A stretch of DNA of 64,000 bases from Botryllus schlosseri (Eukaryota): positions 620,001 to 684,000 of the forward strand of contig CM119371.1 of assembly GCA_051294905.1 (NCBI GenBank), given 5' to 3'. Of this stretch, positions 26,301 to 35,699 are shown in pieces. Position 1 is the first letter of the stretch; every line of letters starts with the position of its first letter. Position numbers and translations under genes: made by a program. Under the pieces are notes generated by a model. It searched no databases and was not told where the DNA came from. It worked only from the letters and a program-made list of their open reading frames with translations.

Positions 26301-28557
26301 CACTGCAACTCATAGATAAACTCTGTCAACAATAACGCATATTGAGCAAGTCGTCAAGCGGCATAGCTAGACATATACTCTTTATTTGTTTCCGTTGATT
26401 TCCGAAGATTACATTGAAATGGGTGGGTTGAAATGGTACACATAATGTATGTGGCAAGTCCAAACTTTACAGTGGCGAATGATCGAAGTAACTCGAAATC
26501 CGTAATACGCAACAGTGAAGTTAGACCAGCGAATACGGTCTGAAATGATCACAAATTATTGAATGCTGGACCAAGTATTATCCAGCTATGTGGGCGGTGC
26601 GGCCACCCCCCAAGTCTTTGGTAACAACGAAGAGTACGGTGAAAAAAATTAGGCCATCGCCATTATGCTCGTAAGATCCACATCGAAACATGTAGGCCAT
26701 AAGATCATGAAATGAGCTCACTTTCATATTTAATTACGCATAAGTCATCGGACGGTACGTACCGTTTGTTTGCTTTCGTAAGATGGCAGAGTTAGAGTAG
26801 GGCAAAGGCTGAAATTGTAAAATAGCCAAAATTTATGGATGTGTTTAAGTCAACTATATTATGGAAATAATAGTGCGGTCGCACTCATATTCGCTCCAAT
26901 ATGTATGACATTTTTTCACATTAGCCTACGAGTTTTGAATCCGACGCTGATTATTATTGACTGTGTGCAAAGCAAGCATATACATTGACAATACACGGTG
27001 AATTTTTGCGATACAAGATTTGAGTAGGCATGCTGATTTCCCAGTAATTAATCCGACTACCAACGAAAATATTTTATGTGGTAAAATGTTTGTGCATCCT
27101 TCGGACATTGATATCTACAATGAATATAAATTCGTTAACTTGACTAGCTGTACATACGATTCAATCCACGTGGCAGAAAGTCACACATGTATGAAAAATG
27201 GCGTATACATTTATCTCAGTCAACGAGATATGTTGGAGCAAGAATCGGAACGACATAATTTGTTTGCTCCCGCTGATTTCGCGGCATTACGTGGACGTGG
27301 GCGGATTGACATTTTGCTACAGATTTATAATGTGACAACTTTGCAGCGTCGAGTTGACAGCAATTCAGAGTTCGTAACATAGACAAATTGATACTGCGAT
27401 TACGGAATGAAAACTTATCTGATTTTTGAAAGCGAAACTGAACATCACTGTCTGTGCTGGCAGAACGGCTGCCTTGATAATCTCTAAATTATTCAAATAG
27501 TAAAAAATACGACCAGGCAGAAACCAATGATGGATCACTAGAAAAATTTCGGATTTTTCAAATTATATGAAAATTAGAAGTATATAGCTGCGAATTTTTT
27601 TCAAACAAGACCAACATTTGAATAGTAGCTGCTATGTTGGTAATCCGAAATATTTTTTAAAAAAAGGTTCCAAGCCCGTGGTTGTTACACTCCGCATAAG
27701 TGTCAATTTCATGCACATAACCTGCGCAAGCATATAATGTAATAAAGGTAGTTTTCAAAACAAATGTTCGTTCTATAGGTATCACGGCATTAATATATAA
27801 TCGAGCATATCCCCCGTAACTTTATTATAAGTTGGAAACAACACAATTTCTCACTGGAAATTCGTCTGATAATTTACTGGTCGTGGCTTATCTTCAGACA
27901 ATACGCCTTTACGAGCTATCGTATTTTCTGATAGGCATATATGTTGCTACCATGTAAATTCTCAACTTAACGTACGCTATGCAAGATTGGCTTTCAACGC
28001 AATACGATAGTCGAGAGGCTCATCGGTTGCCTTTTCTAGAGCAAGCTGACCGTTATTTACTCACAATCTAGCAAACGTTCCGTTCTAATAAACTAGAGCG
28101 ATCGAACGTTCCGTTTATATGAGTCGATATAATTTCATGAAGTGGACCTCATCATCGAACTACCAATGCTTTGCGATTTCTTTTCATTGCATTTTTTTTA
28201 TTCTCAATTCCACTATTACAGATGTTGCGAAATATTTTTCATGAAGACGCATTACCAATTGCAGCTACGACTATGAGCACATGTTTGCTAGCTACTGCCT
28301 AATTTAATTTCATCGACAAATGTCATCATGATGTAAAATTCAACGTGTTCTACAAATAGCACGTGGATCATGAAATGGAAAATTATGTATGTCAGCAGGG
28401 AAGCATGCGAACCCCAAAAGCATCGGAGACAGTGTTGTCATGGCATAGTTTAGGTTTAGGTGCATCTATGTCAGTGTTTCTTAAACTTTTTCCAGTCGCG
28501 ATAACTGACTTTTATAGTCAAATATACCAGCATTATAAGCAGGGTTGCCATACCGTC

Positions 28558-28799
28558 TATTGCGACGCGGGAATCGACTTCTATATCGGACGAGCAAGCA
28601 ATCTTGTGAATCTCGCGATTTAACTATATTATGAACAAGCTATTCCGTATTGTATGTTCTGGACTGCTTGTATTTGAAACAGATGAGATTTGAGATACAC
28701 AACGCTTGCTAGTACCCATTGCCAGATTTAGTGTGCAGCAGACAGGATCCCGACACCTGATAAAGCGCCACTCATCGATTTCAGTGCCGCGTCGGAACA
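28558..28799 (+). repeat. 5' LTR (242 bp; lacks 163 bp present in the 3' LTR)
   Basis: TATTGCGACGCGG...CCGCGTCGGAACA; two mismatches to the 3' LTR over the shared part. Confidence 0.95.
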
Positions 28800-28809
28800 A
28801 TTCACAAGA
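28800..28809 (+). promoter_or_regulatory. Putative self-priming primer-binding site
   Basis: ATTCACAAGA directly abuts the 5' LTR and is the exact reverse complement of TCTTGTGAAT at 28602-28611. It has no TGG (tRNA CCA complement). Confidence 0.55.
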
Positions 28810-28958
28810 AGCCTATTTAAGCCGATATCTTCGATACGCTCTTCGATTCAGGCACCGCATGTGCAGTCTACATTCAAGGCTCTTCTGCCCTACGAAGAGC
28901 GATCGACCCTGCTCGTCACTAAATCTGTTAATACTTAAGGAGTTTCGTTACGTTTGAG

Positions 28959-29630
28959 ATGTCGTTTGTGAAATCTCCAACGGATTCTCACAAGTCTCCA
29001 ACCTTGGCACCGACCTGGAAGCCACTAGCTAAGATGACGGTCGACGATTTACGAGCCGAGTTACAAGTTCTTGGCGAAGCTACCAGTGGAAGCAAAGCTG
29101 TATTGACAGAGCGATTAAGAAAAATCCGCGATTCCAACAAACCCTCGCAAAAGAAAGAGTCGACGCCCTCTCCATTGAGCACCACTGAAAATCCATCTGA
29201 ACTGGTCATGCTTTTTCAGATGATGAAGCATCAGCAAGATCTCGATCGCCAGCAGCAGCAATTAGATCGTGAAGCTGATCGCCGGCAGCAGCAATTAGAT
29301 CGTGAAGATGCCGACCGCAAGTTTCAGTTGCAGCTTGAAGAGCTCAAGCAGAGACAGGTGCTGGAGCGTGAGGAAAGCGAAAGACGGTTTCAACTGCAAC
29401 TGGAAGAAATTCGGCAGAAGTCATTAAAAGACCAACTCAACTCGGGCCACCCATCGGCAAGTAACGGCGATCCATGTCTACCTGAGGTCATTATAAGAAA
29501 ATTCAGACGTATGCATGCCGAAGTTGTCGAGTCTTTGCAAGCGCTTGAAAATAAATATCGGAACCCCACCTCTTTCGAAGAGATCAACGTCTTCATACGA
29601 TCAGTAGATATAGCAATGACCGATCTCTAG
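28959..29630 (+). CDS. Gag N-terminal part: SAP domain and Q/E/R-rich coiled coil
   Basis: LAKMTVDDLRAELQVLGEATSGSKAVLTERL is a SAP consensus. Same frame as the downstream ORF, separated by a single TAG. Confidence 0.8.
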   Translation: MSFVKSPTDSHKSPTLAPTWKPLAKMTVDDLRAELQVLGEATSGSKAVLTERLRKIRDSNKPSQKKESTPSPLSTTENPSELVMLFQMMKHQQDLDRQQQQLDREADRRQQQLDREDADRKFQLQLEELKQRQVLEREESERRFQLQLEEIRQKSLKDQLNSGHPSASNGDPCLPEVIIRKFRRMHAEVVESLQALENKYRNPTSFEEINVFIRSVDIAMTDL

Positions 29631-29696
29631 ACATTCGTTGATGCCAAAATCGACCAGCTTAACGATGGTGATTTAAAGACTGAAATCGTTGATGGC

Positions 29697-32600
29697 ATGA
29701 GAAGTTCGAAAGAAATTTATCTGGCACACCTCCCTCTTGCCAAATCGAAATCTGCATCACTTAAAGCTGCCGAGGATGCCGAGAAAGCCGCCGGATCGCT
29801 CCCCAGTGGAATAGTGCCACCTACATTCAACGGCGACATTTTGACATTTCCCTCATTTTGGGAGTCATTCGAGCCGCTGGTTCACGAAAATCCAAAGGTC
29901 AGTCGGTTTTACAAAATTACTTATTTAAAGGCGGCTCTCAAAGGATCGTCATCCGGCCTTCTTAATGGGTTCCCTTCGACGGCCGTGAGTTATGAGCCTG
30001 CCGTGGACGCTGTCCTTAAAAGGTACGGGAAGAAACAAGCCATAGTGAGAAATCACATCAAAGACTTGCTGCAAGGTGAGAAAGTCGAATTTAAGATCGA
30101 TAAAGTCAGGAGGCTACTCGATGCCGCCACTGCAAAAAGGGCGATATTAACGCAGTATGACGTCTCTTGGGACCAACTGTTTACACAGGTACTCGAGTTT
30201 CAGCTGCCGGGTACGCTGCGCGAACGTTGGATCAGGAAAATTAGTCCTATGATCGATGACGATGAAGTTCCTGATTCCGATCTCTTGTTCGAATTTCTGA
30301 CTACCGAGTTGGCGACGATGGAGTCCTTGCAGTCGCAGAGTGGGCGTCGCCCTACTGACGCACGTGACAAGCCGCAACATAAAGATAAACTGACTAGTTG
30401 CGTTGCCGGTGAAGTTGAAAAATCGTTTTCTGCGCAATCCCTGGTAACGCAATCCGTAACGCCATGCTGTAGCTACTGCTCGAGTCCTCATATGTTAAAA
30501 TACTGTGACGAGTTTTTGAATTTGACTCCCCCCCAGCGAATGGCTGACTTGGTCATGAATAAGCCTGGAAAAGTATGTTTCAGATGCTTATCTCCGAAAG
30601 GGCATGAAGGTCATCCGAAGACATTCCACCAATGTAAGGAGCGTTGTTCCGTCGTGGGCTGTGGGAAACCCCACCACGAATTGCTACACGTTTCTGGGGA
30701 ACCATTGGGCGACGTCAAGTGTATGGTTTCAACCATTGGCAAGCCTCTTTCCGCCCCTGTTTTGCGAGATGCGGACATCGACACATTACTGCCCACTGCG
30801 TTAGGAAGCATCAACCACAATGGCGAAAGGAAACAGGTTAGAATCGCATTCGACTCTTTTTCCCAGAAGAGCTTTGTAACCCGTGGACTAGCAGATTCGT
30901 TGAAGCTAACGCCAACTAAAAGCGATTGCGTGGACATTAGTGGATTTGGAGGTAATTCTGCTTCAAGTGTTGTGGACGTTGTAAAATTCACGCTAGAGTC
31001 CACTGATGGCTTCGAAAACGTTAGTGTTGAGGCTTACGTTCAAGAAGGCGTGATTTGTGCGCCTTTAAGAAATGTAGATCTGTGCGCTAGTCAAATTTCT
31101 CACTTAGACGGTCTGAACCTTTCCGACCCCCTTCCAAGGAATAATTGGACCATTGATATTCTTCTCGGAGGGCGATACTATTTTTCGCTGATGCAGGGAG
31201 AGGTGATTAGTCCTGATGTTCCGGAAATGGGGCCTTATGCGATCAAAACTATATTTGGCTGGGTGTTGGCGGGTCCTTGCGTTAAACTGGAACAAGATAG
31301 GAGTAACACCTCTAGTTGTCTACTTCTCACAACTACACCAAATCACGATTCATTGAAGTCAGATCCATGGCAGTCGTTGAACGACAAGTTGGAAAGATTT
31401 TGGGATCAAGATAGCATCGGTATTTGTGACAAGAAGACTATTCCTACTGCAGAGGAACGGGATGCCGTGGAACAGTTCGAAAGGTCGGTTCAGTTTGACG
31501 GCTCTAAATACGTTGTTTCCTTGCCATTCAGACGTGACGTGCCGGATTTGAAATCCAATTACTGCGAGGCCTATTCAAGATTGCTTTCAGCAGAGAAGAC
31601 GCTGCGTAGGAATCCTGAGAAGTCGCGAAACTACGACGCCGCAATCATGGAATATGAGAAAAACGGGTTCTCGAGAAAATTAACTCAGGACGAGTTCGAA
31701 GAAATTGGTAAGCTCCCTCATTACTTTGTCCCGCACCACCCGGTATTCAAAGAATCCAGTACCTCCACTAAGCTTCGCATAGTATTCGACGCGAGTGCTC
31801 GAGATTGCCAAGGTATGTCACTGAACGACTGTCTACTCAAGGGGCCGAACTTACTACCTGATATTGCGTCAGTGTTACTTCGTTTTCGTACTCACAGGAT
31901 TGCGCTCAGCGGGGATATCAAAAAGATGTTTTGCCAAACAGGTGTTGTTCCAGACCATCAAAGGTACCAATTATATCTTTGGCGTAATTGTGACTCTACT
32001 CGACCACCCGATGTTTATGTTATGACCCGGGTTATGTTCGGCATTACCTCCAGTCCGTTTCTTGCAATTCATACCATTCTGCATTACTCTCGTTTGCAGG
32101 GAAAGGATGCGGAAATTTCGAACATAATTGAGAAAAACATGAACGTAGACGATGTTCATCTTGGCGGCGATAACGTTGACGAAGTACTCGCATTGCAACG
32201 CCGATTAGTTGATTTCTTTCGGGCAGGTGGATGGACGTTGGTCAAATTTGGATCGAATAGCCGTGAGTTGATCGAACAAATTCCGAAGCACGCACGATTG
32301 CCAAACTGCGAGCTGGATTTAGACGATGCTAAGTGTGGCGAAGCCTCTTCGTTAGGGCTGAAGTGGCATACTCTTGATGATCTGATGTATTGTAATGTGA
32401 CTCCAAAACTCTGCGAACAAGACAAATTGGTTACTAAAAGAACCATGCTGAGCAAAGTCAGTCAAATTTATGATGTTTTCGGGTATTTTGCAGCCTTTGT
32501 AGTTCGCGTCAAGATTCTTCTCCAGGATTTATGGAGAAAGAAATTGGATTGGAACGATGAAGTCGATGAAGTCACAGCCACCAAGTACCGTCAATGGACA

Positions 32601-34730
32601 GAGGAACTGGCCTCGCTTGAATCTATAAAGATACCAAGGTATCTATTCGTTGGGCTTCTTGGTTTGAAGAACATTCAACTCCACGGATTCGCCGATGCAT
32701 CTGAAGCCGCTTACGGCGCCGTCCTATACCTCAGAGCCATGGACGAGGAAGGTACAGTAGTGATTCGTTACCTGATGTCGAAAACGAGAGTCGCTCCTTT
32801 GAAAGCGATGTCCGTTGCGCGACTAGAACTAATGTCGGCACATTGTCTCGCTAAACTAGTTCGGTATTGCTTAGACGCTTGGTCCTCGGTTCTAACTGTC
32901 GACAACATTTATTTGTGGTTAGACTCGCAGATTGCTCTCGCCTGGCTCGCCAAGCCGAGTACATACTGGAAAACCTTCGTCAGAAATCGAGTGCAGGAAA
33001 TACATGATCTTGTCTCGCCGGACGCCTGGCGGCATTGCCCCGGTTGCGAGAACCCAGCAGACCTACACAGTCATGGCATGAGTCTCCACGACTTGAAGTC
33101 GAGTAGCGTATACTGGTATGGACCGCATTGGCTAGTTGAGGACGAGTCATGTTGGCCAACAAAAATTTTCCCTAACAATATGACTTTGGACGCCCCGTTG
33201 TTGGAAAGTGCAAGTAATGTCCTTGTTGCTCATATTAAAGATTCGGTTCCATTTTTTGAGAAAGATTACAGCGACTTCAACAAGATCGTTCGTATCACCG
33301 CGAGAATTCTTCGTTGGAAGAATCGCAACTTTTCGGCATTGGACCCGCATTGCGACGACGTCCTAATTGGACCGAATGAGTACAATCTTGCCAGAGATCA
33401 TTTATGGCGCCTCGTACAGCGATCCGAATTCGCAGGCGACTTCGACGATCTTCAAGGTGGTAAAGACGTGTCGCGTAAGTGCATATTTATCAACATGGAC
33501 CCTCAGTACGATGATGATCGCAAATTAATTGTAGCAGGAAATCGTTTGCTACTATCCGATTTACCGGAGTGTGCGAAACATCCCGTAATACTTCCTTCAA
33601 AACATTCTCTCGTCGAAAAATTCATCTTGCATGTTCATACTACGAATTCCCACTCTCCACAGGATACCACTATTGCAATCATCCGCGAGTATTACAGTAT
33701 TATCCATATTCGGGGCGAGGTTAGGCGAGCCCTACGTAAATGTATCACATGTCGACATTGGCGCACGAAACCCTTGACCCAGAAAATGGGAATACTGCCC
33801 CCAGAAAGAATTTGTGTAGCTCCTGCATTTTCAGAAGTGGGTCTTGATTTTACGGGACCCGTTTATATCGACACTGGTACCAAAACTATGCAGAAGGCGT
33901 ACATCTGTCTGTTTACCTGTCCCCACAGTAGGATGGTTCATTTTGAATTAACGAACAGTATGTCAACTGAAGAGTTCTTAGCTGCATTGAGACGCATGAT
34001 GAACCGAAGAGGTTGGTGCAGAGAGATAATCAGCGACAACCAGAAAACCTTTAAGAAGGCTGAGAAGCTCATCAGACTATCCATCCGTGCGCTATTCAAA
34101 GGTACTGCTGATAACGAAAAATTGCAGAAATTCATGACCGACAATGGTATCCACTGGAAGTACATAGTAGAGCGTGCGCCCCATCGCGGAGCGTTCTACG
34201 AGAGAATGAATCGCTCCCTCAAAGAGCCACTCCGGAAGATATTAGGTAAGGCCAGTCTAACCTACGTTGAAATGTATGCCGTACTTACAGACATCGAATG
34301 CGCACTCAATCAAAGGCCGCTGACCTATTTGGGAGCCGACTCCCGGAATCCGCAGGCTATTACGCCGGCTCATCTCTGCATTGGACGTCCGCTCGGTCAA
34401 CTACCGTACTTGCCTACACGCGCCAACATTACGAAGCGGTTCCGATATCTGCAGACACTGCTCAAACACTTTTGGACAAGGTGGAGCAAGGAGTATCTAC
34501 CTTCGCTGCTTCGACGAAACAAATGGAACATTCAGCAACGAGCCCCAAAGATAGGAGATGTTTGCCTTATTGCAGAAGACGGGCTAAATAGACCGAGTTG
34601 GCTCACGGCACGAGTCATCGATACGATTGAAGGCAAAGATGGCCTTGTAAGGACGCTCAAGTTGAAAACGGCAAAAAGTATATTGACTCGTCCCATTCAG
34701 AAAATTCATCTGTTGGAACCTGTTGACTGA
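29697..34730 (+). CDS. Bel/Pao Gag-Pol remainder: Gag core, Cys/His knuckles, aspartic protease, RT, RNase H, integrase
   Basis: PTFNGD..FPSFWESF; C..C...H...C and C..C.KPHHELLH; FDSFSQKSF and DILLG; PHHPVFK, KLRIVFDAS, SLNDCL.KGPNL, DIKKMF, FGITSSPFLA, NVDD; LHGFADASEAAYG, RLEL, NPAD; GLDFTGP, SDN, YER, GKDGLVR. Confidence 0.95.
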   Translation: MRSSKEIYLAHLPLAKSKSASLKAAEDAEKAAGSLPSGIVPPTFNGDILTFPSFWESFEPLVHENPKVSRFYKITYLKAALKGSSSGLLNGFPSTAVSYEPAVDAVLKRYGKKQAIVRNHIKDLLQGEKVEFKIDKVRRLLDAATAKRAILTQYDVSWDQLFTQVLEFQLPGTLRERWIRKISPMIDDDEVPDSDLLFEFLTTELATMESLQSQSGRRPTDARDKPQHKDKLTSCVAGEVEKSFSAQSLVTQSVTPCCSYCSSPHMLKYCDEFLNLTPPQRMADLVMNKPGKVCFRCLSPKGHEGHPKTFHQCKERCSVVGCGKPHHELLHVSGEPLGDVKCMVSTIGKPLSAPVLRDADIDTLLPTALGSINHNGERKQVRIAFDSFSQKSFVTRGLADSLKLTPTKSDCVDISGFGGNSASSVVDVVKFTLESTDGFENVSVEAYVQEGVICAPLRNVDLCASQISHLDGLNLSDPLPRNNWTIDILLGGRYYFSLMQGEVISPDVPEMGPYAIKTIFGWVLAGPCVKLEQDRSNTSSCLLLTTTPNHDSLKSDPWQSLNDKLERFWDQDSIGICDKKTIPTAEERDAVEQFERSVQFDGSKYVVSLPFRRDVPDLKSNYCEAYSRLLSAEKTLRRNPEKSRNYDAAIMEYEKNGFSRKLTQDEFEEIGKLPHYFVPHHPVFKESSTSTKLRIVFDASARDCQGMSLNDCLLKGPNLLPDIASVLLRFRTHRIALSGDIKKMFCQTGVVPDHQRYQLYLWRNCDSTRPPDVYVMTRVMFGITSSPFLAIHTILHYSRLQGKDAEISNIIEKNMNVDDVHLGGDNVDEVLALQRRLVDFFRAGGWTLVKFGSNSRELIEQIPKHARLPNCELDLDDAKCGEASSLGLKWHTLDDLMYCNVTPKLCEQDKLVTKRTMLSKVSQIYDVFGYFAAFVVRVKILLQDLWRKKLDWNDEVDEVTATKYRQWTEELASLESIKIPRYLFVGLLGLKNIQLHGFADASEAAYGAVLYLRAMDEEGTVVIRYLMSKTRVAPLKAMSVARLELMSAHCLAKLVRYCLDAWSSVLTVDNIYLWLDSQIALAWLAKPSTYWKTFVRNRVQEIHDLVSPDAWRHCPGCENPADLHSHGMSLHDLKSSSVYWYGPHWLVEDESCWPTKIFPNNMTLDAPLLESASNVLVAHIKDSVPFFEKDYSDFNKIVRITARILRWKNRNFSALDPHCDDVLIGPNEYNLARDHLWRLVQRSEFAGDFDDLQGGKDVSRKCIFINMDPQYDDDRKLIVAGNRLLLSDLPECAKHPVILPSKHSLVEKFILHVHTTNSHSPQDTTIAIIREYYSIIHIRGEVRRALRKCITCRHWRTKPLTQKMGILPPERICVAPAFSEVGLDFTGPVYIDTGTKTMQKAYICLFTCPHSRMVHFELTNSMSTEEFLAALRRMMNRRGWCREIISDNQKTFKKAEKLIRLSIRALFKGTADNEKLQKFMTDNGIHWKYIVERAPHRGAFYERMNRSLKEPLRKILGKASLTYVEMYAVLTDIECALNQRPLTYLGADSRNPQAITPAHLCIGRPLGQLPYLPTRANITKRFRYLQTLLKHFWTRWSKEYLPSLLRRNKWNIQQRAPKIGDVCLIAEDGLNRPSWLTARVIDTIEGKDGLVRTLKLKTAKSILTRPIQKIHLLEPVD

Positions 34731-34742
34731 CTACTGTCGGTC

Positions 34743-34759
34743 AAGGGGGGGGGGGAGGA
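34743..34759 (+). promoter_or_regulatory. Polypurine tract
   Basis: AAGGGGGGGGGGGAGGA immediately before the 3' LTR. Confidence 0.9.
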
Positions 34760-35164
34760 TATTGCGACGCGGGAATCGGATATTTCGGCGACAAGCATTT
34801 CGCGGCTAGTCGGTTTTCACGTCGGTCTTTACGTCCAATCGATTGATTGTTATTTAATTTGATTGGTTAATTTAATTGTCGCGGCGTCCGTTCTCGTTTT
34901 TCTTCATGTCTCGCGGTTCCTGTTTCATTTCTCGCCAATCGACTTCTATATCGGACGAGCAAGCAATCTTGTGAATCTCGCGATTTAACTATATTCTGAA
35001 CAAGCTATTCCGTATTGTATGTTCTGGACTGCTTGTATTTGAAACAGAAGAGATTTGAGATACACAACGCTTGCTAGTACCCATTGCCAGATTTAGTGTG
35101 CAGCAGACAGGATCCCGACACCTGATAAAGCGCCACTCATCGATTTCAGTGCCGCGTCGGAACA
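34760..35164 (+). repeat. 3' LTR (405 bp)
   Basis: Begins TATTGCGACG after the PPT, ends GGAACA before the TSD. Confidence 0.95.
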
Positions 35165-35699
35165 CCGTCCTTATTTCTAAGATTTGTCCTTATTTTGAAG
35201 GGCCACGTCTTAGAAAACTCGACTGTCCTTATTTCTAAGAAATGTCCTTATTTTCGACTTGCGTCCTTATTTTGTCTTATTTTCAACCACTACAAAACTT
35301 CGATCGTTTTCTTCTGGTATCTATGTTGCATGTTGCATAATATTCTAAAATTAAGCTTATTCGTCGAGATTTTATCACATAAATGAAAGGAACTCTCGTG
35401 ACGTACACACCACAAGATTTGACTTCTAAATGGTGAGATAGCTAGAGCAGTGAGTGGGGGTACAGCAGTTTCGGCTGTACCAAGCTACCGCAGCGGACGT
35501 CATTTTAACAGTAATGCCTGGCTATTGCTGTTTGGTGCACAGCAGAATAAGCTCAAGCTGTGGGGAAAGCCGCATTTATTGCGTAGTGAAAAAAGGCGCA
35601 GTGCAGTCGATACATTGGTTAAAGAGTAGTAAAGCTCTAAATCATTGATAAGTTTCTCCAAATTATATTGCACTTGCGCATATACTTTTAAATCTGATT

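Follow-up and report, generated by a model that had tools for sequence, protein, structure and literature searches.

We analyzed a 64,000-nucleotide stretch of the Botryllus schlosseri genome (assembly GCA_051294905.1, contig CM119371.1, positions 620,001 to 684,000 of the forward strand), referred to here as the window, with positions counted from its first letter. At positions 28558-35164 the window holds an element that, by its Gag-Pol domain set, is a Bel/Pao long terminal repeat (LTR) retrotransposon. Our data suggest that minus-strand DNA synthesis of this element and its relatives is probably started by the element's own RNA and not by a host tRNA, and we consider such self-priming the best explanation for a primer-binding site (PBS) that is complementary to the element's own LTR. 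To our knowledge, experiments have established self-primed reverse transcription for Tf1-type Ty3/gypsy elements alone, and a few copia elements of plants are predicted to use it. If our reading is true, it would extend Tf1-type priming to a third LTR superfamily, Bel/Pao, would reveal a form of self-priming whose primer segment probably lies within the transcript, and would account for the failure of tRNA-based PBS annotation on such elements.

The PBS of the window copy, ATTCACAAGA, directly follows the 5' LTR (28800-28809, + strand) and has no TGG start. We found that it is the exact reverse complement of an LTR-internal segment, TCTTGTGAAT (28602-28611, + strand), the proposed self-primer, with its 3' T placed opposite the first base past the LTR. 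A second copy of this primer-like segment lies in the 3' LTR (34967-34976, + strand). Segment and PBS of the window match over exactly 10 bp, with no further complementarity on either flank. An initial annotation of this DNA had reported these letters and coordinates together with a CTATAT word at 28581-28586, and had described a 10-bp pairing with its 3' end at the first base past the LTR; the sequence confirms each of these. Its further claim, that the PBS matches the element's own LTR and lacks the TGG needed for a tRNA, was borne out both in the window and in the relatives described below. When the LTR segment was shuffled 5000 times with its dinucleotide composition kept, anchored complementarity of at least 10 nt arose once for subfamily A, to which the window sequence corresponds, and six times for the related subfamily B, while the 15- and 17-nt versions found in relatives arose in 0 of 5000.

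Relatives were collected from the element's own 495-Mb assembly in two ways. A DNA search returned 156 candidate matches, of which the best 40 were scored, and a protein search with the open reading frame (ORF) that carries the SAP domain returned 99 matches, including families that are 36-51% identical to the window protein. Eight 1.8-kb upstream regions of these diverged families were compared by anchors; across them, the LTR and leader have no nucleotide similarity to those of the window. The diverged LTRs each end in ...GCCGCGCAGAAACA, and what follows each of them base-pairs with a stretch of the LTR that lies 154-206 nt upstream. Match limits gave independent confirmation of the LTR ends of lineages C and D, since matches to 3' or solo LTRs break off at query positions 326-330 and 342-343, immediately ahead of the PBS.

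In all six lineages, we found the bases that follow the LTR to pair with the LTR segment homologous to that of the window, and the two partners to change together. Subfamily A, 98% identical to the window, has the segment TCTTGTGAAT and the PBS ATTCACAAGA, while subfamily B, approximately 90% identical to the window, has TCTTGCGAAT and ATTCGCAAGA, with a compensatory change from T:A to C:G relative to A. Lineage C (L061 and L064) pairs TAATTAATTGTAAAT with ATTTACAATTAATTA over 15 bp, and lineage C' (L062) pairs TACTTAATTGTAAAT with ATTTACAATTAAGTA, which are compensatory relative to C. Lineage D (L063 and L065) pairs TTGTTATAAAT with ATTTATAACAA over 11 bp, and lineage D2 (L066 and L067) pairs CGTTGTAAAT with ATTTACAACG, with two compensatory changes relative to D. 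At one further locus (L068) the D segment stands with the PBS ATTTATAGCAG, so that two G·U wobbles result.

Distinct LTR/PBS junctions with both partners present number 34 (5 in A, 21 in B, 3 in C, 3 in D, and 2 in D2). The pairing is perfectly Watson-Crick over 10-17 nt in 31 of these; two junctions (L011 and L068) have G·U replacements only, and one (L059, a copy with a stop in ORF1) has a single C·C mismatch. Three further junctions are without the segment, their LTR being deleted or truncated (L006 and its inverted twin L007, and L021), and two loci (L038 and L049) match ORF1 but have no 5' LTR. Thirty junctions entered a covariation alignment, from which L016 (near-identical to L013), L035, L043, and L059 were left out. 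RNAalifold predicted the segment/PBS helix de novo from these 30 sequences, and 100% of the 297 cells of its 10-bp core are paired. Five of the 10 core pairs have changed on both sides, two on one side only, as wobbles, and three are invariant. Taking this helix together with an outer helix described below, 97.9% of cells are paired, compared to 32-44% after the partners are slid by one to three columns. In a shuffle control, the covariation score was reached by none of 500 shuffles, and the number of pairs with double changes by 5 of 500. The covariation check that the initial annotation had proposed is strongly positive, with compensatory changes in half of the core pairs across six lineages, and the complementarity, which that annotation had allowed might be lost in relatives, is kept in all of them.

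These data bear directly on whether the match is an inverted repeat without function, arising by chance or as a by-product. A single 10-bp match in one copy could have arisen by chance, at about 1 in 5000, but in lineages whose LTR sequences can no longer be aligned the repeat is still found at the corresponding position and shows compensatory changes. We consider this explanation very improbable, and it was rejected on the grounds of that conserved position and of those compensatory changes.

Ordinary tRNA priming, either by the 3' CCA end or by an internal tRNA fragment of the copia half-tRNA type, is the mode described for other members of the superfamily. The profile of the International Committee on Taxonomy of Viruses (ICTV) describes Belpaoviridae as primed by host tRNA, with an 18-nt PBS for tRNA-Arg or tRNA-Gly (PMC8742986), and the element Achilles is reported to have a PBS for tRNA-Tyr (PMC4580426). 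Against this mode, a PBS that starts with TGG was found at 0 of the 34 junctions and in none of the six lineages. We also counted junctions across the whole genome with a pattern made of the LTR-end motif, ATT, 12 N, and H. This pattern occurs at 73 places, 63 of them with a recognizable family PBS; the 73 comprise 7 A, 17 B, 4 B with an extended PBS, 7 C, 11 D, 9 D2, 8 of a kind that we call E-type, and 10 others, which look like 3' or solo LTRs followed by flanking sequence. The same pattern with TGG in place of ATT occurs at three places, all of them singletons with different continuations, so the sister copies with a TGG-type PBS that the initial annotation had considered were not found. 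Furthermore, the PBS versions vary by lineage and track their own LTR, and six of them coexist in one genome, that is, in one tRNA pool. On this indirect evidence, with no TGG start among the junctions and with a PBS that follows its own LTR by lineage, the tRNA explanation was rejected as having hardly any probability. As for a separate host gene for the segment, none is apparent among the 12 genome occurrences of the 17-nt segment of family C, 11 of which lie inside LTR matches and one of which is unassigned.

In the mechanism that we propose, the genomic RNA would fold and the LTR segment would anneal to the PBS. The RNA would then be cut at the 3' end of the segment, a step carried out in Tf1 by the element's RNase H, and the freed 3'-OH would be extended through the unique 5' (U5) and repeat (R) regions of the LTR. 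It is the first base added to the primer that fixes where U5 ends. Since the pairing always stops at the U5 end, the 3' T of the segment lies where the 3'-OH of a primer should sit. In the standard scheme of reverse transcription, plus-strand strong-stop DNA copies the 3' part of the primer, and in Tf1 changes in the primer are reportedly inherited by the PBS. If the PBS is likewise rewritten from the primer during plus-strand synthesis here, this would account for the co-change of segment and PBS. We prefer the version of this mechanism in which the primer is a 5' leader fragment of the same RNA, approximately 35-50 nt long and not the first 11 nt as in Tf1, and hold it to be plausible, though somewhat short of probable; the remainder of our confidence in self-priming falls to versions that use the 3' copy of the segment.

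A variant of subfamily B has a PBS whose complementarity is 17 nt long (ATTCGCAAGATTGCTTG), and it was found at C6:392293 (L017/L040), C9:16795149, C14:511389, and C14:515072. The longer PBS looks as if seven more primer bases, the upstream neighbors of the segment, had been copied into the leader. Such an extension is expected from copying further into an attached RNA primer. Given that it is present at four loci, the variant may have spread after the change. Together with the natural compensatory variants, it offers material for testing the mechanism.

We next considered the RNA structure around the PBS. RNAalifold pairs TATCGG (28584-28589, + strand), which overlaps CTATAT, with CCGATA (28822-28827, + strand) to form the outer helix, in which 94.2% of cells are paired and two of six pairs have changed on both sides. 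A U5 hairpin at 28750-28795 (+ strand), with the outer stem CCGAC/GTCGG, ends 4 nt before the LTR end. In eight of eight representatives, the last 62 nt of the LTR are predicted to fold into a hairpin next to the PBS that ends 3-4 nt before the LTR end. Subfamilies A and B have CCGAC/GUCGG as the outer stem of this hairpin, and lineages C, D, and D2 have UUCUGCGC/GCGCAGAA; as read by eye, three shared stem positions differ on both strands between these two versions. When positions 28583-28830 were folded, both the minimum free energy (MFE) and the centroid structure contained the outer helix and the 10-bp helix, and the MFE structure also contained the U5 hairpin. An Rfam scan of 28300-29100 gave nothing relevant, its sole match being to a long noncoding RNA model with an E value of 0.48.

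Structures of this kind raise the question whether the helix serves the leader structurally or in regulation, for example in packaging, dimerization, or masking of the PBS, while a host RNA serves as the primer at the same PBS. Retroviral leaders are described as having U5-leader and U5-inverted repeat stems around the PBS, which provides a precedent. A host primer, however, would need to fit six PBS versions in one genome, and a structural stem need not stop exactly at the LTR boundary, yet the helix always does. The PBS and the segment also change together, and the 17-nt extension copies the upstream neighbors of the segment, both of which also speak against this explanation. We regard the structural explanation as improbable.

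Whether the segment lies at the start of the transcript or within it separates the proposed mechanism from that of Tf1. A motif scan placed a TATA-like word 64-89 nt before the last base of the segment in B, C, D, and D2, and an initiator-like word 27-36 nt further downstream. These motifs point to a likely transcription start 33-53 nt upstream of the last base of the segment, which would then be at +34 to +53; in some B copies and in C the position implied is +38. The 15- and 17-nt PBS variants and the covarying outer helix indicate that RNA upstream of the 10-mer takes part, and in combination with the TATA-like and initiator-like motifs this suggests that the segment is probably not the extreme 5' end. 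Of the Tf1-like reading in the initial annotation, the match of the PBS to its own LTR and not to a tRNA stands, while the placement of the segment at the first bases of the transcript probably does not. Similarly, the CTATAT word is present as described but is probably not a TATA box, since the site reads TGTTAT or TGCTAT in subfamily B and is not conserved as such, while the paired ATCGG, part of the outer helix, is kept.

Several observations weigh against self-priming or against its 5'-leader version. Subfamily A has no upstream TATA, and its only TATA-like motif is CTATAT, 31 nt before the last base of the segment; if this motif were used as a TATA box, transcription would start just after the segment and the RNA would lack the 5' copy. 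The window copy's own 5' LTR is without most of its unique 3' (U3) region. Raw reads of four RNA runs on a full sister LTR (L002:1200-2000) numbered only 9, 3, 1, and 32, and no start pile-ups, end pile-ups, or joints were found among them. The sliding and shuffle controls of the covariation analysis leave relatedness in, and the independent events are few, approximately one per lineage split. The initial annotation had suggested folding this region; the overall energy of the 28583-28830 fold, which contains both helices, is not unusual, the fold being no more stable than shuffles (z = -0.34). Unconstrained MFE folds formed the long-range helix in five of eight representatives and lacked it in three. 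The tRNA scan, which found 0 tRNA genes, covers the 64-kb window only.

Some of these points would fit a different source of the primer, namely the copy of the segment in the 3' LTR. That copy could act either in cis, through circularization, or in trans, and might do so at the site of poly(A) cleavage or close to it. Such priming is itself a form of self-priming, and we judge it unlikely, though deserving of weight. With the start that CTATAT would give in subfamily A, the RNA would contain the 3' copy alone. One read direction in the single-cell run X15, which supplied the 32 reads, covers U3 to approximately 10-37 nt past the segment and then falls to zero, which, with so few reads and a library chemistry that is not known, is a hint only. 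TGTAAA or TATAAA forms the end of the segment in C, D, and D2, with T/G-rich sequence coming after it in D and D2. On the other side, no AATAAA or ATTAAA was found within 60 nt on either side of the segment in A or B, some reads extend at least 13 nt past the segment, and in B, C, D, and D2 the TATA-like and initiator-like motifs would make the segment part of the 5' leader. Priming from the 3' copy would also need the poly(A) tail to be absent or removed.

Self-priming by the 5' leader or by the 3' copy can be compared to systems in which it has been described. In Tf1, the 11 bases at the start of the transcript anneal to the PBS, and RNase H cleaves the RNA between bases 11 and 12 (PMC7175516); Tj1 of Schizosaccharomyces japonicus has been read as self-primed likewise (PMC4600332). 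Tf1/sushi elements are described as having self-primers, plant copia families have been proposed to have them, and self-priming is predicted for the Tcn1 and TAR lineages (PMC6317226). Like Tf1 and Tf2 of S. pombe, Tj1, and the Tf1/sushi Ty3/gypsy chromoviruses in general, the Botryllus elements have no tRNA PBS but one complementary to their own LTR-derived RNA, and, like the Tf1 group, they are predicted to have a U5 stem-loop next to the PBS. Unlike the Tf1/sushi clade, the window element has Bel/Pao domains only in Pfam searches, with no chromodomain. It would work like the members of that clade while being no member of it. Unlike Tf1, the segment is, judging from the motifs, probably 24-53 nt inside the transcript and not at its first bases, and the pairing extends over 10-17 nt with a covarying outer helix in addition; cleavage and priming are proposed here by analogy. 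As for the plant Ty1/copia TAR lineage (Houba and Osr-1) and the Tcn1 clade, the case for self-priming here comes from sequence alone, although these belong to other superfamilies and hosts. With canonical Bel/Pao elements (Tas, Pao, BEL, and Achilles), the window element shares its Gag-Pol domains, LTRs, a 5-bp target duplication, and a polypurine tract, but it differs from them in that its PBS is self-complementary and not of the 18-nt tRNA type, and in that its Gag starts with a SAP domain. The tRNA PBS of Belpaoviridae was taken as a descriptive family trait and not as a phylogenetic criterion. Published self-priming in Bel/Pao was not found in the open full-text literature (including PMC5443660, PMC3601003, PMC5445492, PMC13524379, and PMC3286476), most early Bel/Pao papers being in subscription journals outside this search.

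A SAP domain is present in all diverged families of this genome that have a self-complementary PBS, and a SAP-domain Gag may be a marker of the clade. Among the matches listed, the closest proteins in public collections are 40-55% identical to the window protein, with a SAP domain in 5 of 120, and identity does not exceed approximately 38% for the named Bel/Pao proteins, which come from spiders, corals, insects, and others. We tentatively put forward a wider hypothesis, which we consider possible, though less likely than not. A SAP-Gag Bel/Pao clade would have replaced tRNA priming by self-priming via an internal leader segment, with either a 35-50-nt capped 5' fragment or the 3' copy as the primer; the initiation complex would consist of the primer duplex, the outer helix, and the U5 hairpin; and the E-type units would be fossils of plus-strand strong-stop DNA. 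If this clade-wide reading is true, self-priming would be recurrent in all three LTR-retrotransposon superfamilies, and the statement that Belpaoviridae are tRNA-primed would be corrected. The initial annotation had proposed an independent origin of self-priming in Bel/Pao; this is not established, the trait being common to at least six lineages here.

The E-type junctions occur at eight places in the genome, at which the LTR end ...GCCGCGTCGAAACA is joined directly to ATTCGCAATAGTGCT.... Three loci were examined (L069-L076; C2:35191700-35193700, C6:11176400-11176915, and C10:13785660-13786170), and in these the sequence that begins with ATTCGCAATAGTGCT is the reverse complement of a 5' part of an LTR, which begins exactly at the primer-like segment and proceeds backward across U3. 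Ahead of the junction, the LTR in forward orientation varies in length (approximately 25, approximately 100, and at least 160 nt). One locus that was followed further has no forward copy of the segment and no Pol on either side, and three E-type junctions lie within 3.4 kb on C6 in alternating orientation. These units may have arisen when plus-strand strong-stop DNA snapped back through the complementarity between segment and PBS, and would then be fossils of it.

The remaining features of the window element agree with its assignment to Bel/Pao and indicate that this copy is damaged. All features lie on the + strand. The structural traits of Bel/Pao are present, with LTRs, a short target-site duplication, and a polypurine tract. 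The target-site duplication CCGTC stands at 28553-28557 and, with identical bases, at 35165-35169; sister elements have 5-bp duplications of their own (ATGCC, GCTAG, and CCGAT). The 5' LTR (28558-28799) is 242 bp long owing to a 163-bp internal deletion of most of U3, with the deletion junction in the AATCG at 28572-28576. The 3' LTR (34760-35164, TATTGC...GGAACA) is full length at 405 bp, and intact sister LTRs are 405-411 bp. With these as the reference, the deletion lies between two AATCG words. Bases 28558-28576 of the 5' LTR match the start of the 3' LTR (34760-34778), while a repeat search returned only 228 bp as shared between the two LTRs (28572-28799 and 34937-35164, 99% identity). 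The LTR limits given in the initial annotation, with a 5' LTR start at 28558 next to CCGTC, are correct despite the internal deletion. The two LTRs differ at 2 of the 228 shared positions, which indicates that the insertion is young.

The first ORF (28959-29630) encodes the N-terminal part of Gag in translation and contains the SAP domain (Pfam SAP, E value 1.1e-08). The in-frame stop at 29628-29630, which along with the loss of U3 marks the window copy as damaged, splits a frame that is continuous for approximately 1,930-1,940 amino acids in some sister copies. The Gag-Pol ORF that follows (29631-34730, 1699 amino acids) contains DUF1759, DUF1758/aspartyl protease, Peptidase_A17 (Pao), integrase, and DUF5641 by Pfam. 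The matches include PF05380 (Peptidase_A17, E value 4.2e-45), PF18701 (DUF5641, 5.8e-28), and PF03564 (DUF1759, 4.3e-21), and those to rve, Integrase_H2C2, and DUF1758 are weak and under the curated cut-offs. The polypurine tract GGTCAAGGGGGGGGGGGAGGA (34739-34759) adjoins the 3' LTR here and in sister 3' LTRs.

Subfamily A LTRs start with TATTGC... instead of the usual TG... and end in ...GGAACA. Their termini, in the window for example 34760-34773 and 35151-35164, form an imperfect terminal inverted repeat (TATTGCGACGCGG/CCGCGTCGGAACA). Among the sister loci, L006 and L007 (C1:27140907-27141156 and C1:27148601-27148850) are identical copies that lie inverted approximately 7.5 kb apart; both keep the PBS and have a 5' LTR without the part that holds the primer-like segment, and they are probably a segmental inverted duplication of one damaged copy. 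At L010 (C4:27517012-27518164), two subfamily B LTRs lie approximately 920 bp apart from start to start, in an internally deleted element that has kept its LTR, PBS, and leader.

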